Below, piece by piece: positions 38-11,253 of a stretch of DNA of 11,253 bases. Below the pieces are notes generated by a model that saw only the letters and a list, made by a program, of their open reading frames with translations, did not search any database and had not been told where the DNA came from. Made by a program: the position numbers and the translations under genes. Each line of letters begins with the position of its first letter. The stretch's first letter is position 1. The DNA is from Candidatus Micrarchaeia archaeon (GTDB taxonomy: Archaea; Micrarchaeota; Micrarchaeia; CABMEP01): positions 1-11,253 of the forward strand of contig JAVZXS010000017.1 of NCBI GenBank assembly GCA_038886535.1. The letters are read 5' to 3'.

Positions 38-526
38 CTAATTCCCGCTAACATATGGTTCCAGAACCTTCCAGACCTTCCTGCTGTACCTAGCCCTTTT
101 TGGCTTTGAAACAGCGTTGTAGCAGCCTACTGCCTCCCAACTGTAACCGTGCTGGTGGATACACTGGGCCAGAATCCACGCCCCCACGTGTATGTTGTAA
201 CAGGGATTCCAGATTTGTCTTTCGTCATACAGTCCATGTTTCTTAAGCGCTGGCAGCCATGAGGTGTTTATCTGCATTATTCCTATGTCGTAGGTTCCAT
301 TGTTATTTTTGTTTATAGCCGTATAGTTAAAGTTTGACTCCACCTTTGCTATTGCCCAGAGCAGGTTAGGGTGGATATTGTATACCTTTCCAGCATCAAT
401 AAAGCATTGATTCAGATTGTAAGATGAAAGAAACTGACTATTGCTAATGTTAGAGGTAGAAAATATGAGGATAAATGCTATAACCGTAATTGCAGATATT
501 TTTACCATTATTCTTTTATTCTCCAT
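38..526 (-). CDS. Lytic transglycosylase (SLT domain, VirB1/IagB-like), exported
   Basis: SLT motifs: 'CF..AG..YNIHPNLLWAIAKVESNFN' (catalytic E-S), 'N.NGTYDIGIMQIN', 'NIHVGAWIL', 'WEAVGCYN'; hydrophobic N-terminal signal/anchor. ATG at 526 (MENKR) preferred over 562 because it overlaps the upstream stop at 516-518. Confidence 0.9.
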   Translation of the reverse strand: MENKRIMVKISAITVIAFILIFSTSNISNSQFLSSYNLNQCFIDAGKVYNIHPNLLWAIAKVESNFNYTAINKNNNGTYDIGIMQINTSWLPALKKHGLYDERQIWNPCYNIHVGAWILAQCIHQHGYSWEAVGCYNAVSKPKRARYSRKVWKVLEPYVSGN

Positions 527-821
527 GCAGAATTCTTTTAAGATGTAAAATATCTGCTTCAATTTTTTTTAAAAATACTTTAGCCTTGTAAGAACCTACC
601 AGAAAGGAAAGGAGATTAAAGGCATCGTTTTCCCAGAATTCTATTATCTGCCTTGAAGACTCTCTTTTGCGGGAAAAAATTTCTCTGTATTTATAAGGGT
701 TTTTTAGATAACTTTTTAAATCTTTGTAAGAAAGGATAATAATCGCTTTAATTAATCTTTTAATGCCCTCAAGTTCCTTATTTACCTGTTGTTCCTGTAA
801 TGTTTCCAAATACTTTGTCAT
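516..821 (-). CDS. Hypothetical protein, 101 aa
   Basis: ORF with AGGAG RBS upstream of ATG; overlaps both neighbours in an operon-like arrangement; no motif recognised. Confidence 0.7.
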   Translation of the reverse strand: MTKYLETLQEQQVNKELEGIKRLIKAIIILSYKDLKSYLKNPYKYREIFSRKRESSRQIIEFWENDAFNLLSFLVGSYKAKVFLKKIEADILHLKRILHGE

Positions 822-1242
822 TATGCTTCTCCTGTAAAAAGTTAATTAGTTCATCAATGTTTTTTATTACAATAGCTAGTCCACCAAGACTTTCTACTTT
901 TTTTAGAAATTCCTGTTGAGCTCGGGACAGTTTTCCCTTCCCGCTTTTACACTCTATTGCAAGAAATCTACCGCCTGGCACACATGCTATAATATCCGGA
1001 GAACCCGCAGCCCCCATTTTGATTGCTCTTCTTTTTTCATTTCCTACAACAATTAGCCCCGAATTATTTCTAACTGGTAGATATCCTTTTAAAGAGAGAT
1101 ATTGCATACATGCTTTTACCAGTGCAGACTCCTCTTTCTTATGGTATTTTCTGAGAAACTTATTCTCTGAAAATTTTCTTTCTCCATTCTTCTGTAAATT
1201 TTTGAACAGGAGATTGGCTTCCTTTTCCGTTAAAAAGGGCAT
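778..1242 (-). CDS. VRR-NUC domain (PD-(D/E)XK) nuclease
   Basis: 'GSPDIIAC..GGRFLAIECKSGKGKLSRAQQEFL..VESLGGLAIVI' is the VRR-NUC pattern. Start moved to ATG 1242 (MPFLTE), which has a GGAGG RBS. Confidence 0.88.
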   Translation of the reverse strand: MPFLTEKEANLLFKNLQKNGERKFSENKFLRKYHKKEESALVKACMQYLSLKGYLPVRNNSGLIVVGNEKRRAIKMGAAGSPDIIACVPGGRFLAIECKSGKGKLSRAQQEFLKKVESLGGLAIVIKNIDELINFLQEKHNDKVFGNITGTTGK

Positions 1243-1393
1243 TTTCAGCCTCCTCTGTGATTTCAATGTTATCAATCACAAAAGTATTTTCAAGATATGG
1301 AATAATTGAGACTATGAATTTATCGTCTTTACGATCAATAATGACTTTACCCATTGGTATCTCCATCACTCTGTCTGATACTAAGTAGTTCAT
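1160..1393 (-). CDS. Small hypothetical protein, 77 aa
   Basis: Fills the gap between two minus-strand genes and overlaps both; protein-like composition; start uncertain. Confidence 0.5.
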   Translation of the reverse strand: MNYLVSDRVMEIPMGKVIIDRKDDKFIVSIIPYLENTFVIDNIEITEEAENALFNGKGSQSPVQKFTEEWRKKIFRE

Positions 1394-1919
1394 TTAATTC
1401 TTTTATCTGTTTTCCAAACTCAAGATAAATTCTTGCAATTTTTTCAACCCCTGCAAGATTTCCTTCTCTGGGGAAGTCAATTCTTTTTTTGCTGAGAATT
1501 TTAAAAGCCATCATAATTTGGGCACCTTCGTTTGAACGAGGGATAAAGACAATAGTATTTCTTCTATTAATCAAAATTTGTTTTTGTTCATAAGGCTCAT
1601 TAAGTTCATTCCATCTTTCAGGGGAGAAAAGGAAATACTCTGGAACTGCTTCTTTAAGTCTGTTCCAAAGGGAAACAATCATTTTTCTTACATCTTCAAT
1701 TTTTTTCTTGGCTTCTTCAAGAGAAATAGTGAACCCTACATTTCTCATGATTGAATTAACCTTTTTGTCGAGCTCAAAGATGCTGAAAACTAATTCTCTT
1801 GGTAGTCCCGACTCTGAGATTAAGACAACAATACTTCTTTGATCTTGAATTTGTCTTTTCTTTTTTTCAAGTATTAATTGAGATTTACTTTTGGCTTCTT
1901 GAGCCACTGTTTCAGTCAT
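1347..1919 (-). CDS. Hypothetical protein, possibly AcaB/DUF1845-like conjugation regulator
   Basis: Strong AAGGAGG RBS. Two strand-turn-helix segments (IVVLISESGLPRELVFSIFELDKKV; IVFIPRSNEGAQIMMAFKILSKK) recall DUF1845/AcaB. Gene is well supported; family call is weak. Confidence 0.45.
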   Translation of the reverse strand: MTETVAQEAKSKSQLILEKKKRQIQDQRSIVVLISESGLPRELVFSIFELDKKVNSIMRNVGFTISLEEAKKKIEDVRKMIVSLWNRLKEAVPEYFLFSPERWNELNEPYEQKQILINRRNTIVFIPRSNEGAQIMMAFKILSKKRIDFPREGNLAGVEKIARIYLEFGKQIKELNELLSIRQSDGDTNG

Positions 1920-1948
1920 AAGCTGAACCTCCTTTTAAATTTGATTTT

Positions 1949-2611
1949 TTAATTTAGTGATTTAATTTCAATATCAATATTACCTACAAGACTTTCGAGG
2001 ATCTTTTTAGCGGTTTTGATATTTTTTCCTTTTTCGCCGACAAGAAGACCTACTGAACCATTTTCAGAGTAAACAGTAGCCTGTGAGAGAGATTTAAAAT
2101 AAACTACCCTTTGAATTTTATCTTCATAGTAAAGGAGACTTTTAATTAAATCTTCAACATTTTCATGATATTTAACAAAAAGAAACCTGCCTTCTGGAAA
2201 ATGTCTTTTTATTTCACTGCTTGATACGTAGGGTTTGAAGATATCGTTTAAATCTTTATTTGTGAAATTTTTGCTGGTTTTAATAAGAATTTTAAAAAAA
2301 TTCTGATGAATTCCAATTTTTTTAATGCTTAATTCGTAATTAATGAGAGGTTCATGTAAAAGATATTCAATTAATTTTCTTATATAAGCAGGAGACTTTT
2401 GACTAAGAGTAATTCTTGCTCCCTTTATTTCAAAAACAGCAGCCCAGCCTGTATCGCCGACTTTATAGTCATGGGCAGCATATTTTTTTGGCAACTGTGC
2501 AAAAATTTGAGTACCCACTATGTTACATAGAAGACTGTCATGATCAGGCAATTTTTTCACAACCTGAAAAAGAACAAGGTAGTTGATTTTGATTACTGGA
2601 GAGTTAAGCAT
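1949..2611 (-). CDS. NusA-like RNA-binding protein (S1-KH-KH, no N-terminal domain)
   Basis: S1-like 'AQLPKK....YKVGD...AAVFEI..ARITLSQKSPAYIRKL' parallels NusA 'A.LP....y..GDr....v........iilSRt.p.fv..LF'; C-terminal KH 'GLLVGEKGKNIKTAKKIL....IDIEI' parallels 'lAIGk.GqNvrLA..L.g..IdI'. Confidence 0.75.
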   Translation of the reverse strand: MLNSPVIKINYLVLFQVVKKLPDHDSLLCNIVGTQIFAQLPKKYAAHDYKVGDTGWAAVFEIKGARITLSQKSPAYIRKLIEYLLHEPLINYELSIKKIGIHQNFFKILIKTSKNFTNKDLNDIFKPYVSSSEIKRHFPEGRFLFVKYHENVEDLIKSLLYYEDKIQRVVYFKSLSQATVYSENGSVGLLVGEKGKNIKTAKKILESLVGNIDIEIKSLN

Positions 2612-2692
2612 ATGTTTATTTATTACTTTTTTGTATTTGAGATAATTTGGTTTTTAGTTATTGTAATATTTAATAAAAATTTGAGGACTAAC

Positions 2693-3066
2693 ATGATACA
2701 ATATTTATGGTTTATAATCTGGATAACAGTTTTACTTATTTTTTCATGGAGTAATTCTGGAGATATGAAACAGATTTTTTGTATCTTCTAACTTTAAACC
2801 TTGCACTACTTGGAGCAGGAGCCACATGGCTAAACTCAACAAATATAGAAAAACTTAAAGAGAAAGATAGGAAATTCATTCAATCAAGGAGAAAAATTTT
2901 TAATCTGGTAACATTCACATCATTAATTATTACTGTCACGGGATTAATTTCTTCGTTTATTGATGAAACAAGAGTTCCTCCAATTCTGGGACTTATATCA
3001 ATCGTTCTTATATCGTTTTCAGTTCTACTACTCGGAATTTTGTTTATCAGATTACAGAATAAGTGA
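2693..3066 (+). pseudogene. Frameshifted small multi-pass membrane protein (about 124 aa if repaired)
   Basis: GAGGA RBS then ATG 2693 (MIQYLWFIIWITVLLIFSW) stops at 2791; adding one T to the T6 run at 2775-2780 fuses it in frame to the hydrophobic ORF 2779-3066. Confidence 0.6.
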
Positions 3067-3138
3067 ATTTTTCATACATTTTGCAGGGACCTCAATAAGT
3101 CTTAACCAGGTTAATAACAGGAGAGATAGACATATTTA

Positions 3139-3825
3139 TTACAAAGGAAATAATTTTTTTAATGAGCGAAATAAATTTTTCAGGCATTTTATTGGGGTTT
3201 CAATGAGTCTTAACCAGCAGGGTTTATTTCTTTCAAATTTAAGGCTTTCTATAAGCCCAGAGATGTGCTGTTTTTGTTGGGTTATGATTTCCTGCTGAAT
3301 TTCAAAGTCAATCTCTCTCAGGTATTCATTTAAAGACATTTTGTATGCTTTTATCTCTGTAATGTTCAAATTATCGGGTTCAGCCTCAATAGTTTTGATT
3401 TGTTTCCTTTTAAATTTAAATCCCAAGCTCTTCCAGAAAAAATCTCTTGGATTCAGGTCTTCCTCGCCGTATTCATCTCTGGTTCCAAGTCTTCCTATGA
3501 TCTTTTTTATTGTCAAGTGCTTTTCCCTGTAATAATTAATAGCCCCCCAGAAAAGAAAACTTCCCATATTTAATCTTCTGTATTCTGGATGAATCAGAAT
3601 ATCGTGAATAAAGAGAATTTTCTCAAATCGTCTGTATTCGGTATCAACTCTTGCATAGCAGCATACTGAAGAAAACATTTCTCTGATTTTTTCCTGGGTG
3701 AGTTTGTCAAGAGGATAACCAAGTATTTGTACACTGATAGAACCTAAAGATTCTGCTTCTTGTAACAAACAAAACCATACATTTCCTGCTTTATCCCTAA
3801 CATAGAAATGGTCAACAGTTTTCAC
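3139..3825 (-). CDS. GNAT-family N-acetyltransferase with C-terminal helical tail
   Basis: Acetyl-CoA motif A 'IHDILIHPEYRRLNMGSFL' and 'FFWKSLGF'. GTG at 3825 with GGAG upstream is preferred; the ORF track extends to 3969. Confidence 0.75.
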   Translation of the reverse strand: MKTVDHFYVRDKAGNVWFCLLQEAESLGSISVQILGYPLDKLTQEKIREMFSSVCCYARVDTEYRRFEKILFIHDILIHPEYRRLNMGSFLFWGAINYYREKHLTIKKIIGRLGTRDEYGEEDLNPRDFFWKSLGFKFKRKQIKTIEAEPDNLNITEIKAYKMSLNEYLREIDFEIQQEIITQQKQHISGLIESLKFERNKPCWLRLIETPIKCLKNLFRSLKKLFPL

Positions 3826-4092
3826 CTTACTTTCTCTCCAGAATCGTGTTCTTCGAGAAGCGATCCAGTTTGATGAAAAGATAAAAACAGGAAAACAGCC
3901 AAACGTTAACTGCCACCATGGCATTTTGCCTCTGGTTCCTGCCAGCAATAGGATACTATATTGAAACATGTTATGGGAATATTACTCAAAATTTTTGCAG
4001 GGGGTAATATATAAATAACTTTAGTTCAGTAGATTTCGAATATCAGGTATCAGGTCTGAAAGCCTGAAATTATTTCCTCCCTTCTTTTTCTT

Positions 4093-4173
4093 GCAATGCA
4101 GGCTCTTATTTTTTATTTTCAAATTTTTATTTTTTATTTTCTTTTTTCAGCAATTTTAGTTTGCCTGCATTGC
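4093..4173. repeat. 11-bp perfect inverted repeat around a 59-nt T-rich spacer
   Basis: GCAATGCAGGC (4093-4103) and GCCTGCATTGC (4163-4173); extends 4 more pairs on the + strand if G-U is allowed. Confidence 0.85.
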
Positions 4174-4202
4174 GGGAATAATCACCTTTGGGAGGTAAAA
4201 TT

Positions 4203-4400
4203 ATGTTTACAAAAAATGTGCAAATTTATGAAAAGATTGATTCTTCTTTCTTAGCCAGCCTAACTGGTTTAAAGAAAGAAATTATTGAACAGATATTTCT
4301 TGTTGGAGACACTTTTCGTGTTTCCAATAAGAAATATAAAATTTGCCAGACTGCGGAAGAAAACAACCAGAAGGTTTTCCTCTGCCAGGTCTGGCAGTAA
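4203..4400 (+). CDS. Small hypothetical protein, 65 aa, monocistronic
   Basis: GGAGGT RBS at 4191-4196, ATG 4203, terminator immediately after the stop. Confidence 0.8.
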   Translation: MFTKNVQIYEKIDSSFLASLTGLKKEIIEQIFLVGDTFRVSNKKYKICQTAEENNQKVFLCQVWQ

Positions 4401-4401
4401 G

Positions 4402-4428
4402 AGGGGCGAAAGCCCCTTTTTTATTTTT
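4402..4428 (+). terminator. Rho-independent terminator
   Basis: AGGGGC-GAAA-GCCCCT stem-loop followed by a T-run directly after stop 4400. Confidence 0.92.
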
Positions 4429-4462
4429 AACACCTATTGAAAACTATGTCACGCATATTTTT

Positions 4463-4960
4463 TCACTTCCACAGAATTACACCTGCAAGTAAGCCAATAC
4501 TCACAAGATATTCAGCAGGGCTACCGACTCTCATGATTCCAATAGAAAAAGTTCTCCTTGTTGGATGTATCAACGGAACTGAGGAGCTTAAAGCATCCTG
4601 TAGAACATGTAGAATGCAACCAATTGAAGTATAAAAACAGACAAATAAAAGAGCAAAAATTAAAGTTTCTGAATTAAAAATGGTAAAACTTGATATAAAT
4701 TTAGCAAATGAAATAGAGAGTATATCTATTTTTGTTTTCAAGCGGACAACAGTCCATAATAGAAAAGCAATAAATACATAGCCTAACAACCAATGGCTAA
4801 ATCTTCTATGATTTTTTCTCCATCTCTCGGAGTGGTAATCATGTCCTTCTATAGCATCAGGGAGGATACTGCCTCCAGCAGCCATCAAGGAGGAGACGAT
4901 ATCATGAGTCAAAAGAAAAACCAGAGAAAACGTTGAAATCTTGTGGTTTATCCATTTCAC
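4463..4960 (-). CDS. Membrane-bound metal-dependent hydrolase (YdjM/DUF457-like)
   Basis: 'M...NH', 'GSILPD', 'HRRFSHWL', 'G.ILH..QD.L' motifs with hydrophobic helices; GGAGG RBS; GTGA start/stop overlap with upstream gene. Confidence 0.85.
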   Translation of the reverse strand: MKWINHKISTFSLVFLLTHDIVSSLMAAGGSILPDAIEGHDYHSERWRKNHRRFSHWLLGYVFIAFLLWTVVRLKTKIDILSISFAKFISSFTIFNSETLIFALLFVCFYTSIGCILHVLQDALSSSVPLIHPTRRTFSIGIMRVGSPAEYLVSIGLLAGVILWK

Positions 4961-5151
4961 CGTATGCCTCCTTTTCTTTTAAGCTGTCTGATTTTTCTCT
5001 CATCCAGTCCTGTTATCCTGATCTGATTGTCAGGCCACATCTTCCTTGGCAGAACTATACATTCAAGAATCTTTTCCTCCAGAAACTCCTTTGAATCTGA
5101 AATTATAACTGCCCATGTTTCCTGTCCTGTTTTAACAGTTGCTACTTCCAT
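4957..5151 (-). CDS. Small hypothetical protein, 64 aa
   Basis: Overlaps both neighbours in the operon; no motif recognised. Confidence 0.65.
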   Translation of the reverse strand: MEVATVKTGQETWAVIISDSKEFLEEKILECIVLPRKMWPDNQIRITGLDERKIRQLKRKGGIR

Positions 5152-5516
5152 TTTTCTTTTGCTTGCCTTATCCAGTTTTTTAAATCTTTCACATTGAAAA
5201 TATAATCTCCATTTACTGAAGTTACAGGGATTTTTCCTTTTTTTACCTGAGTAAAAACAAAACGGTATGGTAGCCCCAGTACCAGAGCGAGATTGCTTAT
5301 TCCCTTTATTGATTCATCCTCAGAAAACGTTTCAATTAAAGAGGAAACAGTGGCTCCAGATTTTCTGGAAGATTCAACCCATCTGAGAATATCATCCACA
5401 TCATAAAGCACCATCCTGCCAAGCTTAACTTTGGGAATTCTGGCAGAAGATATGGTTCTTGGCTTTATATTTAGCAAATTGCAAACTTCAACCTCATTAA
5501 GCAGCAGTCTTTTCAA
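5142..5516 (-). CDS. Tandem excisionase-like (HTH_17/MerR-like) DNA-binding protein
   Basis: Domain 1 'LLNEVEVCNLLNI....IPKVKLGRMVLYDVDDILRW'; domain 2 'LALVLGL..RFVFTQVKKGKIP...VNGDYIFNVKDLKNW'; TTG start with GGAG RBS. Confidence 0.8.
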   Translation of the reverse strand: MKRLLLNEVEVCNLLNIKPRTISSARIPKVKLGRMVLYDVDDILRWVESSRKSGATVSSLIETFSEDESIKGISNLALVLGLPYRFVFTQVKKGKIPVTSVNGDYIFNVKDLKNWIRQAKEKWK

Positions 5517-5703
5517 GGGTCTTCTCCTTCCAGTGTTTTAAATCATTGAAGGGAAATCTCAGAAATCTTCCGATTTTCAGATATGGAAGTCCCCTGCCCA
5601 TGTAGTAATTGAGCATGGTTCTACTTTTTAAATTAAGCACTTCCATTGCTTCCTCTTTAGTAAGGAGCAGTTTTTCTAATTTTTCCTGTTTTTCTCTATC
5701 CAT
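5497..5703 (-). CDS. Excisionase-like HTH_17 DNA-binding protein
   Basis: 'LLTKEEAMEVLNL.SRTMLNYY...GLPYLKIGRFLRF...DL..W'; GGAGG RBS. Confidence 0.85.
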   Translation of the reverse strand: MDREKQEKLEKLLLTKEEAMEVLNLKSRTMLNYYMGRGLPYLKIGRFLRFPFNDLKHWKEKTLEKTAA

Positions 5704-5846
5704 TTTTTTAAATCCTCCAGATTAAAAACATAATTCCACTCATTAAGACGTATGTGAGGTATGTTGTGTTTTTTCACAACCTTTTTAAATTGTCTCCCAT
5801 TTTTAAATCCCATTAACTTTGCAGCCTTTTCAATGTCAAGTAGCAT
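5676..5846 (-). CDS. Excisionase-like HTH protein, 56 aa (absent from ORF track)
   Basis: Manual translation: MLLDIEKAAKLMGFKNGRQFKKVVKKHNIPHIRLNEWNYVFNLEDLKKWIEKNRKN*; same LL..e.A..l / IP.i.l / F...DL..W pattern as its neighbours. Confidence 0.8.
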   Translation of the reverse strand: MLLDIEKAAKLMGFKNGRQFKKVVKKHNIPHIRLNEWNYVFNLEDLKKWIEKNRKN

Positions 5847-6056
5847 ATATATTTATTACTTCCTGCAGAGGGCTTTCTCTAAAGAAAAGTATCTCGTAAA
5901 ATCGAGAGAACAATCAGCGAAAAGGAATCAGAAGCTATTTGAGTTTGTCTTTTTTTTTACTGAGAGAACTTCTCTCCTCCTAAAGAGAGGATTTTTAAGG
6001 CATAAGTAAAACTACAGGGGGCTTTTTACTCTGGAGAGGTAAAACTTAGCTTGCCA

Positions 6057-6227
6057 TTTCAATATGCAAAGCATATTGAAACCTGTTTCTTAATTGTAGG
6101 CTTATTAAACAAACGTAGATACTATAACAAATCCTTCAATAAGAGAGAGATAAAAATATTCCCCTTTATAAGGGGAATAAACTAATCCTGGTTGATTTTC
6201 AATAACTACGAAGTAGTTATTGAAAAT
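6057..6227. repeat. Three perfect hairpins with 3-nt loops
   Basis: TTTCAATATGC-AAA-GCATATTGAAA (6057-6081), TATTCCCCTT-TAT-AAGGGGAATA (6157-6179), ATTTTCAATAACTAC-GAA-GTAGTTATTGAAAAT (6195-6227). Confidence 0.95.
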
Positions 6228-6471
6228 TTTTCCTGGTACTAGTAACAATCTTACAATAAAGTACCATGTTACAATACTATATAAAGCTATCTTAAAAAAT
6301 TAATAATTTATTTATATATACCTTACATGAAAAATTTAAAAATTTTCCTTAAAATTCAAATAGTTACAAAAACGATTTTTAATGTAAAAATTGAACAAAA
6401 ATTAAAAATTTCCCTTGAATTTCAAATATTTCGTTTTAAAGGCTGACCGTTAGAAATAAAAATTTTGATGG

Positions 6472-6480
6472 TTATCCCCA
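6472..6480 (+). promoter_or_regulatory. Putative DnaA box
   Basis: TTATCCCCA, one mismatch from TTATCCACA, 12 bp before the repeat array and after an AT-rich tract. Confidence 0.4.
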
Positions 6481-6492
6481 GGTTTCCTTTAT

Positions 6493-6679
6493 GGATTAAA
6501 ATCCCATTTTTGGGATTATAATCTGTTACACGGATTAAAATCCCATTTTTGGGATTATAATCTGTTACACGGATTAAAATCCCATTTTTGGGATTATAAT
6601 CTGTTACATGGATTAAAATCCCATTTTTGGGATTATAATCTGTTACATGGATTAAAATCCCATTTTTGGGATTATAATC
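6493..6679. repeat. 39-bp tandem repeat, 4.8 copies, palindromic (iteron- or centromere-like)
   Basis: Unit GGATTAAAATCCCATTTTTGGGATTATAATCTGTTACAY starts at 6493, 6532, 6571, 6610, 6649 (last partial); only the final base varies. Confidence 0.97.
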
Positions 6680-6700
6680 CTTCGGAAGGAATATATATGA

Positions 6701-8431
6701 GTGCAGAAAGTTTCGGGCATAATAATTCATCAGATAACAACACGAAGGGGGACTTGGTTTCAGCTCAGGAGCAGAACCTGGGTTTATGTTCCTGATATAA
6801 TTTCTTCCTTTTTGATTGGTTCAAAGGGAGAATTTGAGGGAGAAATCAGACGACAAAGGGGATGTAAGCCTTTTATTTATGTCAGGAATTATTCCATCCC
6901 TGAGCCCTTCAATATTGAAGAAGTAATAAATAAAGTAATGAGGTTACTTGAAAAAATAAATTTTAAAGCAATGAATCTTTTAAAGATTCAAGCAGTTTTA
7001 AATCTGCTTGTTTACTTATTTGTTATTGGCAAAATAGCATTAATCAAGAAACTTGCGAAGTGGAAGGCAAAAAAAATCATTGAATACTGTCATTATCCTT
7101 ACAGTTTTTATTTCAACAAACATCTTGATTTTCAGTCAACGAATCTAATTGCTAATGTTTTAATGGTGGAAGAGAGATATAAAATTTATCCTTATGCTCA
7201 TTTTATTCTTGTTGAGGCATATAAAAGTGGCAAGGAATTTTTAACTATTGAAGAGCTACATAAGAGGGTTTTAAAAGGGTTAAAAAATGAAATCACCCTT
7301 GAAGATTTAAGGCAGGAAATTGAAAATAATTCAAGGAAAATGATAGTTCTTTCAGGGGACAAGGCATATCTCAGTTCAGTTTATTATATGAGACAGAGAT
7401 GCCTTGATATTCTTGCAAATAAGAACCTTCCTTCTTTGAATGTATTTGATGGGTTACCGCAGCAGTTGAGGGCAATTTTACAGTGGAAATATAGTATTCT
7501 TACGGGGCAAGCAGGGACAGGAAAAACCACATTAATTAAGCAGTTGAAAAATTCTTCTTTAAACATAAAATTTACAGCTACAATAGGCAAAACAGCCAAA
7601 AATCTTGATGAATCAGCTACGACGATACATGATCTTCTTAATTATCCAAAATTTCAGATTAAAGAGATTGAAACAGATATTGTTGTGATAGATGAATCAA
7701 GTATGCTTACGTGGCAGTTACTATATCATGCATTAACAAAGATAAAGGGTCATATAATTTTTGTTGGTGATCCAGAGCAGACCTCTCCGGTGCAAGGTGC
7801 TGGAATTTTTAAGGAGATGATAGAAGTAATGCCAGAAGGTTCAGTAAAAAAACTTGAGACAGTTTACAGAACTGTAAATACGAAAAGGGAAATTATTAAA
7901 GCAGTTGATAGAAAAACAGCGATACTTAAGGTTATGAATCTGGCATCATATTTTGAGAAAAAGGGCTATGACTGGCAAATACTTACACCCTTAAAGAGGG
8001 TTGCTTATGACCTAAACAATAGGATTCAATATTGTTTCAGGGGTAATGGCTCTTCTGAACCGTTTAAAGTTGGTAACAGGGTTATGTTTTTAAAGAACTT
8101 AAGAATAGATGGAATGCTTGTAGCGAGCAATGGGCAGACTGGAACTGTAGTTGGTAGAGATGGTCAATACTATGTAGTTCGTTTTGGTGACAGATTGATT
8201 AACTGTCTTGAAGAAGAAATTGCCCTTGCTTATGCTATGACCATACATAAAGGGACAGGTTCTGAACATGATTATGTTATATGTTACATACCTTATGGAA
8301 TGGGTAAAAATGAAGAATTTTTCTCAGATGATTTAATAGAAGTTGCAGATACCCGGGCAAAAGTAAAGACAATTTTTATATGTGAAGATACCCAAACAGT
8401 ATCAAGGATTAAAAACTATGTCATGACATAG
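6701..8431 (+). CDS. RecD2/TraA-like SF1B DNA helicase
   Basis: Walker A GQAGTGKTT, Walker B VVIDESSML, motif III VGDPEQ.SPV, IV LETVYR, 2B 'FKVGNRVM..KN....NGQTG.V', V AYAMTIHKGTGSE, VI TRAK; RecD2-like N-terminal extension. GTG start uncertain. Confidence 0.88.
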   Translation: MQKVSGIIIHQITTRRGTWFQLRSRTWVYVPDIISSFLIGSKGEFEGEIRRQRGCKPFIYVRNYSIPEPFNIEEVINKVMRLLEKINFKAMNLLKIQAVLNLLVYLFVIGKIALIKKLAKWKAKKIIEYCHYPYSFYFNKHLDFQSTNLIANVLMVEERYKIYPYAHFILVEAYKSGKEFLTIEELHKRVLKGLKNEITLEDLRQEIENNSRKMIVLSGDKAYLSSVYYMRQRCLDILANKNLPSLNVFDGLPQQLRAILQWKYSILTGQAGTGKTTLIKQLKNSSLNIKFTATIGKTAKNLDESATTIHDLLNYPKFQIKEIETDIVVIDESSMLTWQLLYHALTKIKGHIIFVGDPEQTSPVQGAGIFKEMIEVMPEGSVKKLETVYRTVNTKREIIKAVDRKTAILKVMNLASYFEKKGYDWQILTPLKRVAYDLNNRIQYCFRGNGSSEPFKVGNRVMFLKNLRIDGMLVASNGQTGTVVGRDGQYYVVRFGDRLINCLEEEIALAYAMTIHKGTGSEHDYVICYIPYGMGKNEEFFSDDLIEVADTRAKVKTIFICEDTQTVSRIKNYVMT

Positions 8432-8477
8432 TTTTTCAGAGAGAAAAATTAATGATAAAAAAGGGGGATAGATAGAC

Positions 8478-9194
8478 GTGCAGGCAATAACAGAAAGCAA
8501 AATAACTTATCAAGATATATTTAATAGGGCTTTGTTATTGCTTAATCGTTCAGAGAAAGCCAAAAAAGACCAGATAATTGCCAACTTTCAACTTGGTGAG
8601 CTTGTAGCAGAGGTTCAGGATAATGCCAGTTATGGAGACGCTGCGGTAGTAAAACTTGCAGAGGATTTAACCAGAGCGAAGGGTTATCAGATTCATCCAG
8701 CTTTTTTATGGGGATGTGCAAGGGTATACAGGACGTTTAAGGGTAATCTTCAGCGAGTTTGGAAACTTGAAAAGGAACTGCAGCTAAGAGGGATACAGCT
8801 TAGCTGGAGATTTCTGGTCCGTAATTGCACGCCTATACCTGAACCTGAAAAAGTGCTTGAGGCAGAGGCATACTGGGAAAGACAGATAACAGAGTGGGAA
8901 AATACAGTTCAGGAAATAGAGGAAAAAGTAGAGAAAAAGGAAGAGGTTTTGGAGAGCATGCCACCTCTGGCAAAAAAGCAGTTTGAGGGTTTTGTGGTTA
9001 GGGTTGCAGGAGACAGTGCAGTTAAAGTAAAGTTGAATAATTTTGAAAAAATTAATAATATTTTAAACAAAATGGAAATTTTGTTAGACAGTTTATTATC
9101 AGAAAAGAGATACTTAAGAGAGGAAATAGTGAATCAGTTAAGAAGTATAAAAGGGAAAATTGAAACATTGCTAAACTTAAATAATGTTATGTGA
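8478..9194 (+). CDS. DUF1016 (YhcG) N-terminal-like domain plus coiled coil
   Basis: 'NFQLGELV.E.Q..ASYGDAAVVKLAEDL....G......L......YRTF....LSW' parallels the DUF1016 N-terminus; no PD-(D/E)XK domain follows; GGGGG RBS, GTG start. Confidence 0.65.
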   Translation: MQAITESKITYQDIFNRALLLLNRSEKAKKDQIIANFQLGELVAEVQDNASYGDAAVVKLAEDLTRAKGYQIHPAFLWGCARVYRTFKGNLQRVWKLEKELQLRGIQLSWRFLVRNCTPIPEPEKVLEAEAYWERQITEWENTVQEIEEKVEKKEEVLESMPPLAKKQFEGFVVRVAGDSAVKVKLNNFEKINNILNKMEILLDSLLSEKRYLREEIVNQLRSIKGKIETLLNLNNVM

Positions 9195-9195
9195 A

Positions 9196-9717
9196 CTACT
9201 CCATTTTATAGAAGATGGAGACTTCTTGCGAGAGTTTTGTTAAATATTTTTCTACTCTAAACTTTATAACATCTTGAGAAACTTGAAAAAATTTTGAAAG
9301 ACTGTTGGTGGAGCAATTCATATTTGTTATTTGTTTTAACTTATCTGTTGGCACCAGAAGTTCAGAGGCAAAAATATTAGCTTCTTTTTCCAACTTACCA
9401 TTTTTTAATTCATAGAGGTTGCCAATTTCACACATAATCTGTTGTTTTTTTAAGTGATTTAATACAATATGACCTATTTCATGTGCAATAGTGAATCTTT
9501 TGTGGTTGAAAGGTTTACTAATATTTACTCCTATTATATATGGATATTCAGGATTGTTAACTTCTATGACGAGCCCTGAAATTTTAGGAGGTAATTTTTC
9601 AAAAATAATAATAGCTCCTACAGCCTCTGCAGCTTTATATAGATTTACTGGGAAACTGTAAAGATTATTTTTCTTTAGGAAACCTCTTGCGAGAGCTCTT
9701 ATGCTTTCCTCTGTCAT
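9196..9717 (-). CDS. ImmA/IrrE-family zinc metallopeptidase (anti-repressor)
   Basis: 'RFTIAHEIGHIVL' (HEXXH), 'EKEANIFASELLVP', C-terminal 'LSKFFQVS....R'. Confidence 0.93.
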   Translation of the reverse strand: MTEESIRALARGFLKKNNLYSFPVNLYKAAEAVGAIIIFEKLPPKISGLVIEVNNPEYPYIIGVNISKPFNHKRFTIAHEIGHIVLNHLKKQQIMCEIGNLYELKNGKLEKEANIFASELLVPTDKLKQITNMNCSTNSLSKFFQVSQDVIKFRVEKYLTKLSQEVSIFYKME

Positions 9718-10360
9718 GAGTTTTCCTTTTATAAGCTTCTATAATACTAATTATACCATCGACAAGAGAATTTATATCTTCACTGGATAAATCTTCAAGA
9801 CTTCTGAGGAGAGAGGAAATTTTATCATATTTTAGGAGATTTTTTACGTTATCTGGTACGTAATTAGCAGCCAGAAGATAGTCATATACTGATTGATTTA
9901 GAGCCATAGCAAGGGCAACAACATCTTTTCTTGAGATAATTCCTCTATATTGGAGAATGTTGTTTATAATTTCTTTATTTATCCCTGAATTTTGTGATAT
10001 TTCGTCTATGTTTTTGTTTTCTAAATCCTTTTTAAGTTTTTCAACAAATTCAATAGGCATGCTTTCAGTAGGGATGATTTTTTCAATTTTTTCCTTTTCT
10101 ATACTATTCCTGGCTTCTTCAGCAATTTTTGAGAGAGCCTTTGCTGAAAGCAGTTGTTTTGAAATTTGAGCCTCTTCAACTTCATTTTCAGCCAGAGCGT
10201 GGGCAATTCTTCGAATCATATTATCAGATGGTAGTCTCATATCATTTGGGTTTTCAATGGCATAAATATATACATCTGTAACGCCTGCTTTTTTTGCAAG
10301 TTCCCGTGCTTTAATACCCTTTTTAAGCCTTATTTCTTTTAATAATTTTTTGAATTCCAT
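9665..10360 (-). CDS. XRE/ImmR-like repressor with a probable second HTH
   Basis: 'LKEIRLKKGIKARELAKKAGVTDVYIYAIEN.....PS......IA.AL'; second 'IDEISQNSGINKEIINNIL......S......LA.AL'. Start placed at ATG 10360 (MEFKK). Confidence 0.88.
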   Translation of the reverse strand: MEFKKLLKEIRLKKGIKARELAKKAGVTDVYIYAIENPNDMRLPSDNMIRRIAHALAENEVEEAQISKQLLSAKALSKIAEEARNSIEKEKIEKIIPTESMPIEFVEKLKKDLENKNIDEISQNSGINKEIINNILQYRGIISRKDVVALAMALNQSVYDYLLAANYVPDNVKNLLKYDKISSLLRSLEDLSSEDINSLVDGIISIIEAYKRKTHDRGKHKSSRKRFPKEK

Positions 10361-10368
10361 ACAAGAAA

Positions 10369-10398
10369 AGTATAAATAAAAAATCTCAAAAAAGTAAA
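10369..10398 (-). promoter_or_regulatory. Putative repressor promoter, near-leaderless transcript
   Basis: Minus strand TTTACT-18 nt-TATACT, ending 8 nt before ATG 10360; no Shine-Dalgarno. Confidence 0.5.
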
Positions 10399-10430
10399 TA
10401 TAAATTTCTTGTAACAATAAAAAGGAGGCA

Positions 10431-10460
10431 TTGACACAAACAAATTTATTTGTTTATAAT
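10431..10460 (+). promoter_or_regulatory. Consensus sigma70 promoter with palindromic operator in the spacer
   Basis: TTGACA (10431-10436), 18 nt, TATAAT (10455-10460); AAACAAAT-TT-ATTTGTTT inverted repeat at 10438-10455. Confidence 0.9.
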
Positions 10461-10489
10461 TTTAGAAATACTAATAAATGGAGGGGTAA

Positions 10490-11059
10490 ATGGATAATTC
10501 AATATTATTAGAAGAATATCTTGAAAAATATTCAGAAGAGGCTATGAGATGGTATGAGGACAAAGACATGAGAAATATAATTCAAAAGGTTATAAATCAG
10601 ATAAAGCAGTATAACAGAGTTTGTGATGAAGAAGATTACTGGTCAGAAGCGTTTTTAGCTTTACAGATTGGGGTAATAAAATATAATAAGTTTAGAAAAT
10701 ATTCAGTAGGTTTCTCCGAAAATTTCCTTGAGGAAGATGACGAGGAAGTCTATGAGTATCTGTCACGTAATCCCACTATGAAATTTCAGACATTTGCTTA
10801 TTGGTATCTACAAAAAAGACTTTATAAACTTGCAGATATGGGAGATGTTGAATTTATTGTTTCTGTAAATGGAACTGATAACATAATTTCTGCTGAAGAA
10901 TATTATAAAAACAGACATAAATATAATGGTAATGCGAGGTCAGTGCAGAGAGTTTATTCATTTACTGAGCTCGAAGTGGAGAACGATAGAGGAAAGGAAT
11001 GTTTCGAACCTGTGAGTTATGAAGATTTTATTAATATAAAAAGAAACTGTAGGGGGTAA
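10490..11059 (+). CDS. Sigma70 region-2-like protein with no evident region 4
   Basis: 'DEEDYWSEAFLALQIGVIKYN' resembles region 2.2 (eDL.qEg.igL..av.kfd) and 'KFQTFAYWYLQKRL' resembles 2.3-2.4 (kFstYA.wwIr..i); GGAGGGG RBS. Confidence 0.65.
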   Translation: MDNSILLEEYLEKYSEEAMRWYEDKDMRNIIQKVINQIKQYNRVCDEEDYWSEAFLALQIGVIKYNKFRKYSVGFSENFLEEDDEEVYEYLSRNPTMKFQTFAYWYLQKRLYKLADMGDVEFIVSVNGTDNIISAEEYYKNRHKYNGNARSVQRVYSFTELEVENDRGKECFEPVSYEDFINIKRNCRG

Positions 11060-11063
11060 TAAT

Positions 11064-11253
11064 ATGGGTTTAGTGACAGTTGATGAATTTGTCCGAAGTG
11101 GCAGGCTACCAATGGTAAAAAATAAGCATGATGTATATATGCTTATCAGAATGGGTGGACTGAGAGCGATAAAACAGGGAAGAAGGACATATATTGTTAC
11201 TGATAACTCAGATATTGACAGTATAAGCCAGAGTAAGGAAGAAAGAAACAAGA
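11064..11253 (+). CDS. Excisionase-like HTH protein, partial (runs off the window; absent from ORF track)
   Basis: AGGGGG RBS, ATG 11064: MGLVTVDEFVRSGRLPMVKNKHDVYMLIRMGGLRAIKQGRRTYIVTD...; 'VY.LIR.G.L.A.K.GR...I' is the HTH_17 wing pattern. Confidence 0.7.
   Translation, partial: MGLVTVDEFVRSGRLPMVKNKHDVYMLIRMGGLRAIKQGRRTYIVTDNSDIDSISQSKEERNK

Follow-up and report, generated by a model that had tools for sequence, protein, structure and literature searches.

How might a mobile element supply its transfer genes with transcription factors of its own? The question is raised by contig JAVZXS010000017.1 of assembly GCA_038886535.1, a stretch of 11,253 nucleotides (nt) analysed here as the window. 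It encodes an ImmR/ImmA-like repressor and peptidase, a protein with the fold of sigma-70 region 2 and no region 4 (half-sigma), and a paralog of the elongation factor NusA, all of which we trace below to an integrative conjugative element (ICE). Our best overall explanation, which we favor at slightly better than even confidence, is that a promoter freed by ImmA yields a half-sigma that would read the hexamer GTAATA as the -10 box of element promoters.

The element behind the window

The window is the entire contig C17 of bin G000, a genome that is archaeal judging from its rpoA''-L30e-short nusA-S12-S7 cluster. We rejected an archaeal system because the tetranucleotide usage of C17 deviates from that of the main contigs (r 0.906 versus at least 0.99 for C2-C5) and because C17 matches elements of Thermodesulfovibrio. 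Its nearest named relative (L006) is a Thermodesulfovibrio contig in which an 87% identical NusA-like gene is followed by orf190, a VRR-NUC gene, a lytic transglycosylase (SLT) gene, DsbC, TraF and TraC. The most likely account is that a bacterial ICE contig was mis-binned in an archaeal genome.

A one-contig genome of the Thermodesulfovibrio family (G007) contains 17 of the 21 window open reading frames (ORFs) with their order kept; two small membrane genes, a GNAT gene and orf64 are missing. Bounded by tRNA-Pro and, roughly 76 kb away, by a copy of this tRNA's 3' part, the G007 element has att repeats and a tyrosine integrase adjoining tRNA-Pro. It carries F-type type IV secretion system (T4SS) genes (TraC, TraN, TraU, TraF, TraE, TraK, TraB, TraV and TraG) and a coupling protein, and also encodes an HD-domain protein, a primase, a beta clamp, NrdD, a ParM-like protein and a NusG-like protein. 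The HD-domain protein, located near the coupling protein (PF01966 E 2.4e-4), is matched by no relaxase model. The window itself ends before the tra cluster, and the T4SS genes and att repeats are found in the syntenic G007 element, where DsbC, TraF and TraC follow SLT as in L006. Transfer genes had been expected beside this region, and a full tra cluster does follow in G007. From the synteny with G007 and its tRNA-Pro ICE context we therefore conclude that the window, as shown by synteny, is the control region of an ICE of mating-pair formation type F (MPF-F) from thermophilic Nitrospirota.

A tblastn search of 72,556 plasmid records with half-sigma or the NusA-like protein gave no match, and no relative of the window was found among viral contigs. 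Words of the window occur in 12 sequencing runs, from hot-spring metagenomes, three of which contain at least half of the words; no RNA data set is among the runs listed.

Among contigs C6-C40 of G000, most of the small ones are unlike C1-C5 in composition, so its contamination figure of 0.25% probably understates how much foreign mobile DNA is in the bin. Contig C7 (L003, L004) carries a second F-type conjugative region, in which a different NusA-like gene of 267 residues (TIGR01953 E 1.8e-8), outside the NusA family of the window, adjoins a coupling protein.

Half-sigma, its putative switch and the GTAATA signal

The features of the window that bear on initiation are as follows.

10490..11059 (+), half-sigma: sigma-70 region-2 fold (residues 1-118) with a small beta-rich tail, no region 4
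11064..11253 (+), 5' part of a helix-turn-helix (HTH) gene, truncated where the contig ends; in relatives it is followed by a ParB-like gene and the coupling protein
10431..10460 (+), consensus sigma-70 promoter, TTGACA-18-TATAAT, with a spacer dyad as putative ImmR operator
9665..10417 (-), ImmR-like XRE repressor with a second repressor-like region (HTH_3 E 3e-11; PHROG repressor matches at residues 124-191)
9196..9717 (-), ImmA/IrrE-family metallopeptidase (Peptidase_M78 E 9.5e-19, above cut-off; HEIGH and EKEANIFA motifs)
2621..2626 (-), GTAATA, candidate half-sigma -10, 9 nt before the nusA start codon, without a Shine-Dalgarno sequence
3980..3985 (-), GTAATA, 10 nt before the GNAT start codon
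5854..5859 (-), GTAATA, 7 nt ahead of the first HTH gene's start codon
4004..4040 (+), tripartite GTAATA-N18-AGTAG-N4-CGAA, pointing to orf70

The half-sigma protein of the window (189 residues) has no match of its own in Pfam, NCBIfam or PHROG. A profile search recovered 56 representatives at E<=0.001, and 15 of the 44 aligned family members match Sigma70_r2 (best E 9.3e-7) while none of the 44 matches Sigma70_r4, which bears out the prediction of a gene with sigma region 2 only. In the Atlas, its feature score to sigma-factor clusters is 0.96; a search of PDB sequences with the profile returned nothing below E 0.26. The structural model (pLDDT 86) forms residues 120-189 into a beta-rich part that is not region 4. 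Its best fold match is the N-terminal domain of SigE, an extracytoplasmic function (ECF) sigma factor (Z 7.7, rmsd 2.4, 77 residues aligned), with other sigma-2 domains next. Modelled with a beta' fragment from G001, half-sigma scored 0.67 against 0.01 for the best control, a mark reached by 116 of 157 solved pairs and 2 of 215 mismatched pairs. The runs share at least 69% of contacts, the pLDDT of the partners is at least 69, and residues 48-60 are placed on the beta' clamp helices. W105 and K109 are nearly invariant and lie on the predicted DNA-facing helix. On these models, half-sigma looks able to bind RNA polymerase.

The gene that follows half-sigma is HTH-type in most loci. The copy cut by the contig end is represented by 63 residues in the window (homologs have 178-192) and falls below the HTH_17 cut-off. 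Genes at this position belong to several families, with 11-38% identity to the G007 copy, and match HTH_17/AbiEi or nothing, never Sigma70_r4. The proposal that half-sigma and this HTH protein together activate element promoters is partly supported: modelled polymerase binding and the element-specific, promoter-like signals described below speak for it, but the HTH partner is neither one family nor sigma-4-like.

The ImmA/ImmR-like pair that had been proposed is real. The HExxH site of the peptidase is intact, and the layout is that of ImmR/ImmA, an XRE repressor and an HExxH M78 peptidase divergent from the target promoter. The promoter at 10431-10460 is the sole 12/12 site among 39 promoter-like sites in the window; shuffles yield 42 sites at >=9/12. 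The dyad in its spacer pairs 16 of 18 nt in the window, 20 of 22 in G001 and, weakly, 10 of 12 in G007, which suggests an operator. The idea of an operator-overlapped consensus promoter thus holds for the promoter and its dyad, the operator being putative. A TTGACA-type promoter is kept in all five examined loci with a divergent repressor.

We counted the flanks of half-sigma in 17 non-redundant loci, having excluded four further loci for lack of room. Both ImmR and ImmA lie beside half-sigma in 3 of the 17 and the repressor alone in another 3 of 17; because the pair is confined to 3 of 17 loci, the protease trigger is a module of a subfamily. Protease-triggered derepression, as first proposed, fits the divergent arrangement seen in the window but would be limited to this subfamily. 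In the G005 element, a second repressor/peptidase pair lies ahead of a cargo operon (L041:13063-16875) whose sequences, judged by eye, resemble a ubiquitin system.

A signal absent from the original prediction is the hexamer GTAATA, an element-specific sequence just before start codons. It occurs in 27 of 45 distinct nusA leaders versus 2.2 in shuffles, and 5-10 nt ahead of ATG in 26 of 481 element ORFs versus none of 229 host ORFs (p 4.8e-5). The distance peaks at 7 nt, with 13 of the 26 exactly there. A Shine-Dalgarno sequence is missing at 23 of these 26 close sites, whereas sites 11-60 nt from ATG mostly have one (29 of 41 with, 12 of 41 without; p 2.9e-6 versus the close sites). This is the pattern expected of a -10 box that gives leaderless or leadered messages. 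The -10 boxes of sigma-70 promoters end in a near-invariant T; unlike them, GTAATA is followed by T at only 8 of 26 sites.

GTAATA also opens a tripartite motif, of general form GTAATA-N18/20-AGTAG-N3/8-CGAA, that heads element operons. All seven genome-wide matches to its bipartite core in G007 fall inside the 76-kb element, while G008 and G009 have two matches each, not above their controls. CGAA, which was absent from the search pattern, follows in 23 of 24 sites. In G005, a genome of a different phylum that was not used in building the motif, the ICE contains all eight matches, each pointing the same way as the genes (control 0); G313 and G275 have one match each to the tripartite motif. 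Upstream of -4 the 32 sites share no conserved feature, and none of them has a sigma-70 promoter at >=10/12 nearby. The opposite direction, CTACT..TATTAC, was rejected; we read the motif as GTAATA because sites between co-directional genes make sense only that way. AGTAG..CGAA is distinct from ops, with which it has only GTAG in common. A short second tyrosine-recombinase gene occurs within elements close to GTAATA-type sites (L033:12047-12667 and L087:7020-7598).

The NusA paralog and the element backbone

Two genes on the leftward strand bear on elongation.

1949..2611 (-), NusA paralog, S1-KH1-KH2 only (profile match to T. maritima NusA E 8.8e-14; Foldseek E 1.1e-14, TM 0.70)
1347..1919 (-), orf190, helical protein without a family match, near-constant neighbor downstream of the NusA paralog and candidate NusA partner

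The NusA-like gene of the original prediction is confirmed by these matches. In bacterial NusA the N-terminal domain binds the flap tip of the polymerase. The paralog lacks this domain, and all rows of its family start at S1. A split-off N-domain gene was looked for and not found: in five of five genomes the sole NusA_N match is host nusA. The GxxG loop of KH1 is lost in 28 of 28 members, and that of KH2 is kept in 24 of 28. In a tree with a small outgroup of four host NusA proteins, a long branch with full support separates the 28 paralogs from that outgroup. Because the polymerase-binding domain and the KH1 GxxG loop are gone, the paralog cannot work as a plain NusA.

The gene heads an operon that runs through SLT into tra, which agrees with the suggested leftward operon leading to the VirB1-like gene. 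The lack of an excess of intrinsic terminators in 20 kb of the G007 tra region (9 versus 11.7 in shuffles) weighs against simple antitermination. Nor does the paralog stand in place of NusG-type control, because 5 of 11 related genomes also carry a NusG-like gene.

Of 26 element loci with room downstream of the NusA paralog, 25 have orf190 there. The Atlas gave no usable match for it, and scans of the window assigned it no family. Identity with the activator AcaB (DUF1845) was rejected: PF08900 is matched by none of 26 members, and hhalign against five plasmid AcaB-like proteins gave a probability of 0.4%. In five genomes PF08900 had no match, though no control gave a signal either.

Half-sigma and the NusA paralog occur together on homologous elements with T4SS genes, the co-occurrence and synteny that the original prediction had asked about. 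Four overlapping samples contained half-sigma in 2 of 21, 6 of 301, 3 of 401 and 2 of 96 genomes, which makes 11 distinct genomes. Nine of the 11, from two phyla, carry the element NusA, and the NusG-like gene was counted within the stretches fetched. A census from the NusA side gave 90 loci, 84 called genes and 44 non-redundant loci, of which 30 have element markers. Downstream of the NusA gene, tra genes or SLT are present in 14 of 17 loci; half-sigma is upstream in 8 of 14, plus L011. The usual order is half-sigma, a variable HTH-type gene, a ParB-like gene, the NusA paralog, orf190, SLT and tra, and half-sigma is directly divergent from nusA in 4 of 17 non-redundant loci.

Two copies of the NusA paralog lie within 4 kb of one element (L087:6322-7005 and 10001-10684). 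In Syntrophorhabdus-type chromosomes (L013-L019, L021-L025, L118-L120, L155-L157) the paralog is surrounded by housekeeping genes and has kept a leader with GTAATA, and a half-sigma homolog is found elsewhere, adjoining a ParB-like remnant; these copies possibly represent domestication.

The rest of the backbone comprises the following features.

38..562 (-), VirB1-like lytic transglycosylase (SLT E 1.9e-22), last window gene before the tra cluster of relatives
778..1275 (-), VRR-NUC nuclease, backbone gene (PF08774 E 3.5e-7), syntenic in G007
3139..3969 (-), GNAT acetyltransferase (PF00583 E 4e-4), cargo inserted before nusA, in L006 and absent from G007
4188..4400 (+), orf70, small gene conserved in G007 (53% identical), its leader long and structured
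5142..5846 (-), three Xis-like HTH_17 genes (124, 68 and 56 residues), syntenic in G007
6493..6679 (no strand), 39-bp tandem array of 4.8 copies ahead of recD2, candidate iterons or HTH binding array
6701..8431 (+), RecD2-like SF1B helicase (TIGR01448 E 6.5e-38)
8411..8436 (no strand), perfect 26-bp palindrome before orf238, candidate operator, recurring in G007 (three), G001 (one) and L068 (one)
8478..9194 (+), orf238, DUF1016_N-like putative DNA-binding protein (E 2.2e-6, below cut-off)

The SLT gene, 38-562 (-), lies left of the interval for which the system was originally proposed. Several Xis-like HTH genes had been named; those of 124 and 68 residues are above the HTH_17 cut-off, and those of 56 and 63 residues are below it. 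The 39-bp array has a counterpart in G007, nine copies of a related 39-mer at the equivalent place before recD2, and the single Rfam match in the window, a chance one, falls on it. orf70 ends in a terminator-like hairpin (4399-4420). Its leader (4017-4205) contains a 16-bp inverted repeat (fold z -3.5), and related arms with altered letters are present in G007 and L067. A near-perfect palindrome of 29 bp (6197-6225), conserved in G007, lies between the HTH cluster and recD2.

Mechanism, rival readings and significance

In the explanation that we favor, the ImmR-like repressor would block the consensus sigma-70 promoter in the subfamily of the window, until ImmA, activated by stress as the biology of ImmA/IrrE/CapP suggests, cuts it. 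The derepressed promoter would yield half-sigma, the HTH protein and the ParB-like protein. Half-sigma, in the model, docks on the beta' clamp helices of the host polymerase like a sigma-2 domain, and it may open promoters whose sole fixed upstream feature is a GTAATA -10 box. The messages of nusA-tra, the coupling protein, ParM and the NusG-like gene would be leaderless or nearly so, and those of replication and establishment operons would have leaders with the AGTAG..CGAA signal. T4 gp55 recognizes the -10 only, and the HTH and ParB-like proteins probably add the missing specificity here, as gp33 does for gp55. Least certain are the steps that involve the NusA paralog. Unable to dock via a flap-tip domain, it would most likely serve as an RNA-binding adaptor on element transcripts, possibly acting with orf190 and the NusG-like protein and loading at AGTAG..CGAA. 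A fuller version, which we consider unlikely as a whole, is that an ICE family of Nitrospirota and Desulfobacterota has a private transcription system on the host polymerase. A sigma-2-only protein would start at -10-only, often leaderless GTAATA promoters, and AGTAG..CGAA would load an antitermination complex of the N-domain-less NusA, orf190 (replacing the polymerase tether) and the NusG paralog; half-sigma and NusA would have been kept in some Syntrophorhabdus chromosomes.

Several observations weigh against initiation by half-sigma at GTAATA, in addition to the small share of loci with both ImmR and ImmA. The fold match of half-sigma, at Z 7.7, is middling, and Foldseek with its model found nothing at E<=0.001. 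The pass of the complex model may reflect memory of solved sigma2-beta' structures, and its host subunit is a stand-in from G001. G275 and G586 have half-sigma without the element NusA, 14 of the 44 non-redundant NusA loci have no element marker, and G289 and G241 have half-sigma but no tripartite motif. Three of the seven bipartite sites in G007 helped define the pattern. GTAATA alone occurs about 0.5 times per kb in host DNA, and a box of 6 bp cannot be specific. The element borders were set by eye and the loci are related, so the p-values overstate independence; part of the host-ORF control is richer in G+C. Finally, the spacing of 7 nt fits a ribosome-recruiting RNA site as well.

This last point is the core of a rival in which GTAATA is an RNA signal for the S1/KH domains of the NusA paralog, a Shine-Dalgarno substitute 7 nt before ATG and also the opening box of a nut-like site (GUAAUA, short hairpin, CGAA) at which an antiterminator loads and which recurs along long operons. 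The spacing equals that of a Shine-Dalgarno sequence, the two are mostly exclusive, several sites in G005 and G007 come right after the stop of a co-directional gene, a short hairpin is possible in many AGTAG spacers, and chromosomal Syntrophorhabdus copies retain GTAATA before nusA. We nevertheless think it quite unlikely, as it leaves unexplained the normal Shine-Dalgarno sequences after 29 of the 41 sites at 11-60 nt, the tripartite site of G275, which lacks the element NusA, and the degenerate KH1 loop.

Less probable again is that the tripartite motif is an ECF-like bipartite promoter read by a split sigma as in Tn916, with GTAATA as the -35 (the HTH partner substituting for sigma-4), AGTAG as the -10 (half-sigma) and CGAA as the start region. 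The 18-20 nt between the boxes fit -35/-10 geometry, the best fold match of half-sigma is an ECF sigma domain and an HTH-type gene follows it in most loci. Yet the same hexamer stands 7 nt before start codons, which is impossible for a -35, and the partner is not a single family although the motif is conserved across phyla. The least probable of the readings that we weighed takes the motifs as operators or single-strand promoter parts for establishment genes, comparable to Reg576 and Frpo and read with host sigma, with half-sigma serving as an anti-sigma or a decoy and the NusA paralog recruited for DNA transfer instead of transcription. Frpo promoters are reportedly single-strand promoters of establishment genes, and here the tripartite sites head primase, methylase, clamp and nucleotide-reductase operons in surroundings that fold as single-stranded DNA (median z -2.4, mononucleotide shuffles). 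Such a reading has to contend with the lack of a sigma-70 promoter near the 32 sites, with the leaderless geometry, which it does not explain, and with the residues (W105, K109) that half-sigma keeps on the predicted DNA-facing helix.

Each part of the system has precedents. In a preprint on Tn916, Sig7-8 is an ICE-borne split sigma, with T4 gp55/gp33, SPO1 and SigO-RsoA as forerunners (bioRxiv 10.64898/2026.10.01.756105). There, as we propose here, an ICE-coded partial sigma factor drives excision and transfer genes, but its regions 2 and 4 are on two proteins and positive control operates without a repressor (10.64898/2026.10.01.756105). In our elements no region-4 gene was found, ImmR/ImmA stands over half-sigma in one subfamily, and promoter-like sites are many. 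According to the same preprint, T4 gp55 with gp33 and Bacillus subtilis RsoA with SigO share the principle of a sigma-2-only subunit dependent on a co-activator (10.64898/2026.10.01.756105); the present family differs in its conjugative elements, its candidate box GTAATA and its extra beta-rich tail, and we identified no co-activator for it. ImmR/ImmA-type switches have been reviewed, and that review describes for ICEBs1 ImmR/ImmA, DdrO/IrrE and CapH/CapP the arrangement seen here, in which an XRE repressor and an M78 peptidase share an operon that diverges from the promoter under control (bioRxiv 10.1101/2022.04.27.489752). In the window the controlled gene is half-sigma rather than xis, the repressor has about 230-250 residues, no RapI-like gene was seen and the peptidase has no GAF domain.

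For elongation, NusG paralogs in plasmid tra operons are noted in PMC7593976 and offer, with RfaH/ops, the parallel of resident elongation factors in long tra operons, one that extends to the NusG-like gene of 5 of 11 related elements. The constant factor here, however, is the N-domain-less NusA, and the window has no NusG-like gene. The paralog shares the S1-KH1-KH2 fold with bacterial (TIGR01953) and archaeal NusA (Foldseek TM 0.70) but differs from them in the missing N-domain, the lost KH1 GxxG and its placement in a clade of its own on mobile elements; S1 is absent from archaeal NusA. Repeated upstream elements of establishment genes are described in PMC6294495, and Frpo promoters are reportedly treated in PMC9849209. 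No paper on a NusA paralog carried by an element, on this ICE family, on the GTAATA motif or on the combination turned up in our literature search, outside of which lay supplements and most subscription papers. To the extent of our searches, a sigma without region 4 that comes with a predicted box has not been described, nor has a conserved NusA without an N-domain at the start of tra.

These results define a previously undescribed family of ICEs from anaerobic, hot-spring and bioreactor bacteria. A natural NusA without the polymerase-binding domain, kept in two phyla, lets the S1-KH-KH module's own role be probed. If our explanation is true, half-sigma would add a class of alternative sigma factor that has no region 4 and whose promoter box is predicted, it might offer an orthogonal promoter system, and the element could transcribe its transfer genes with little reliance on the normal promoters of the host.

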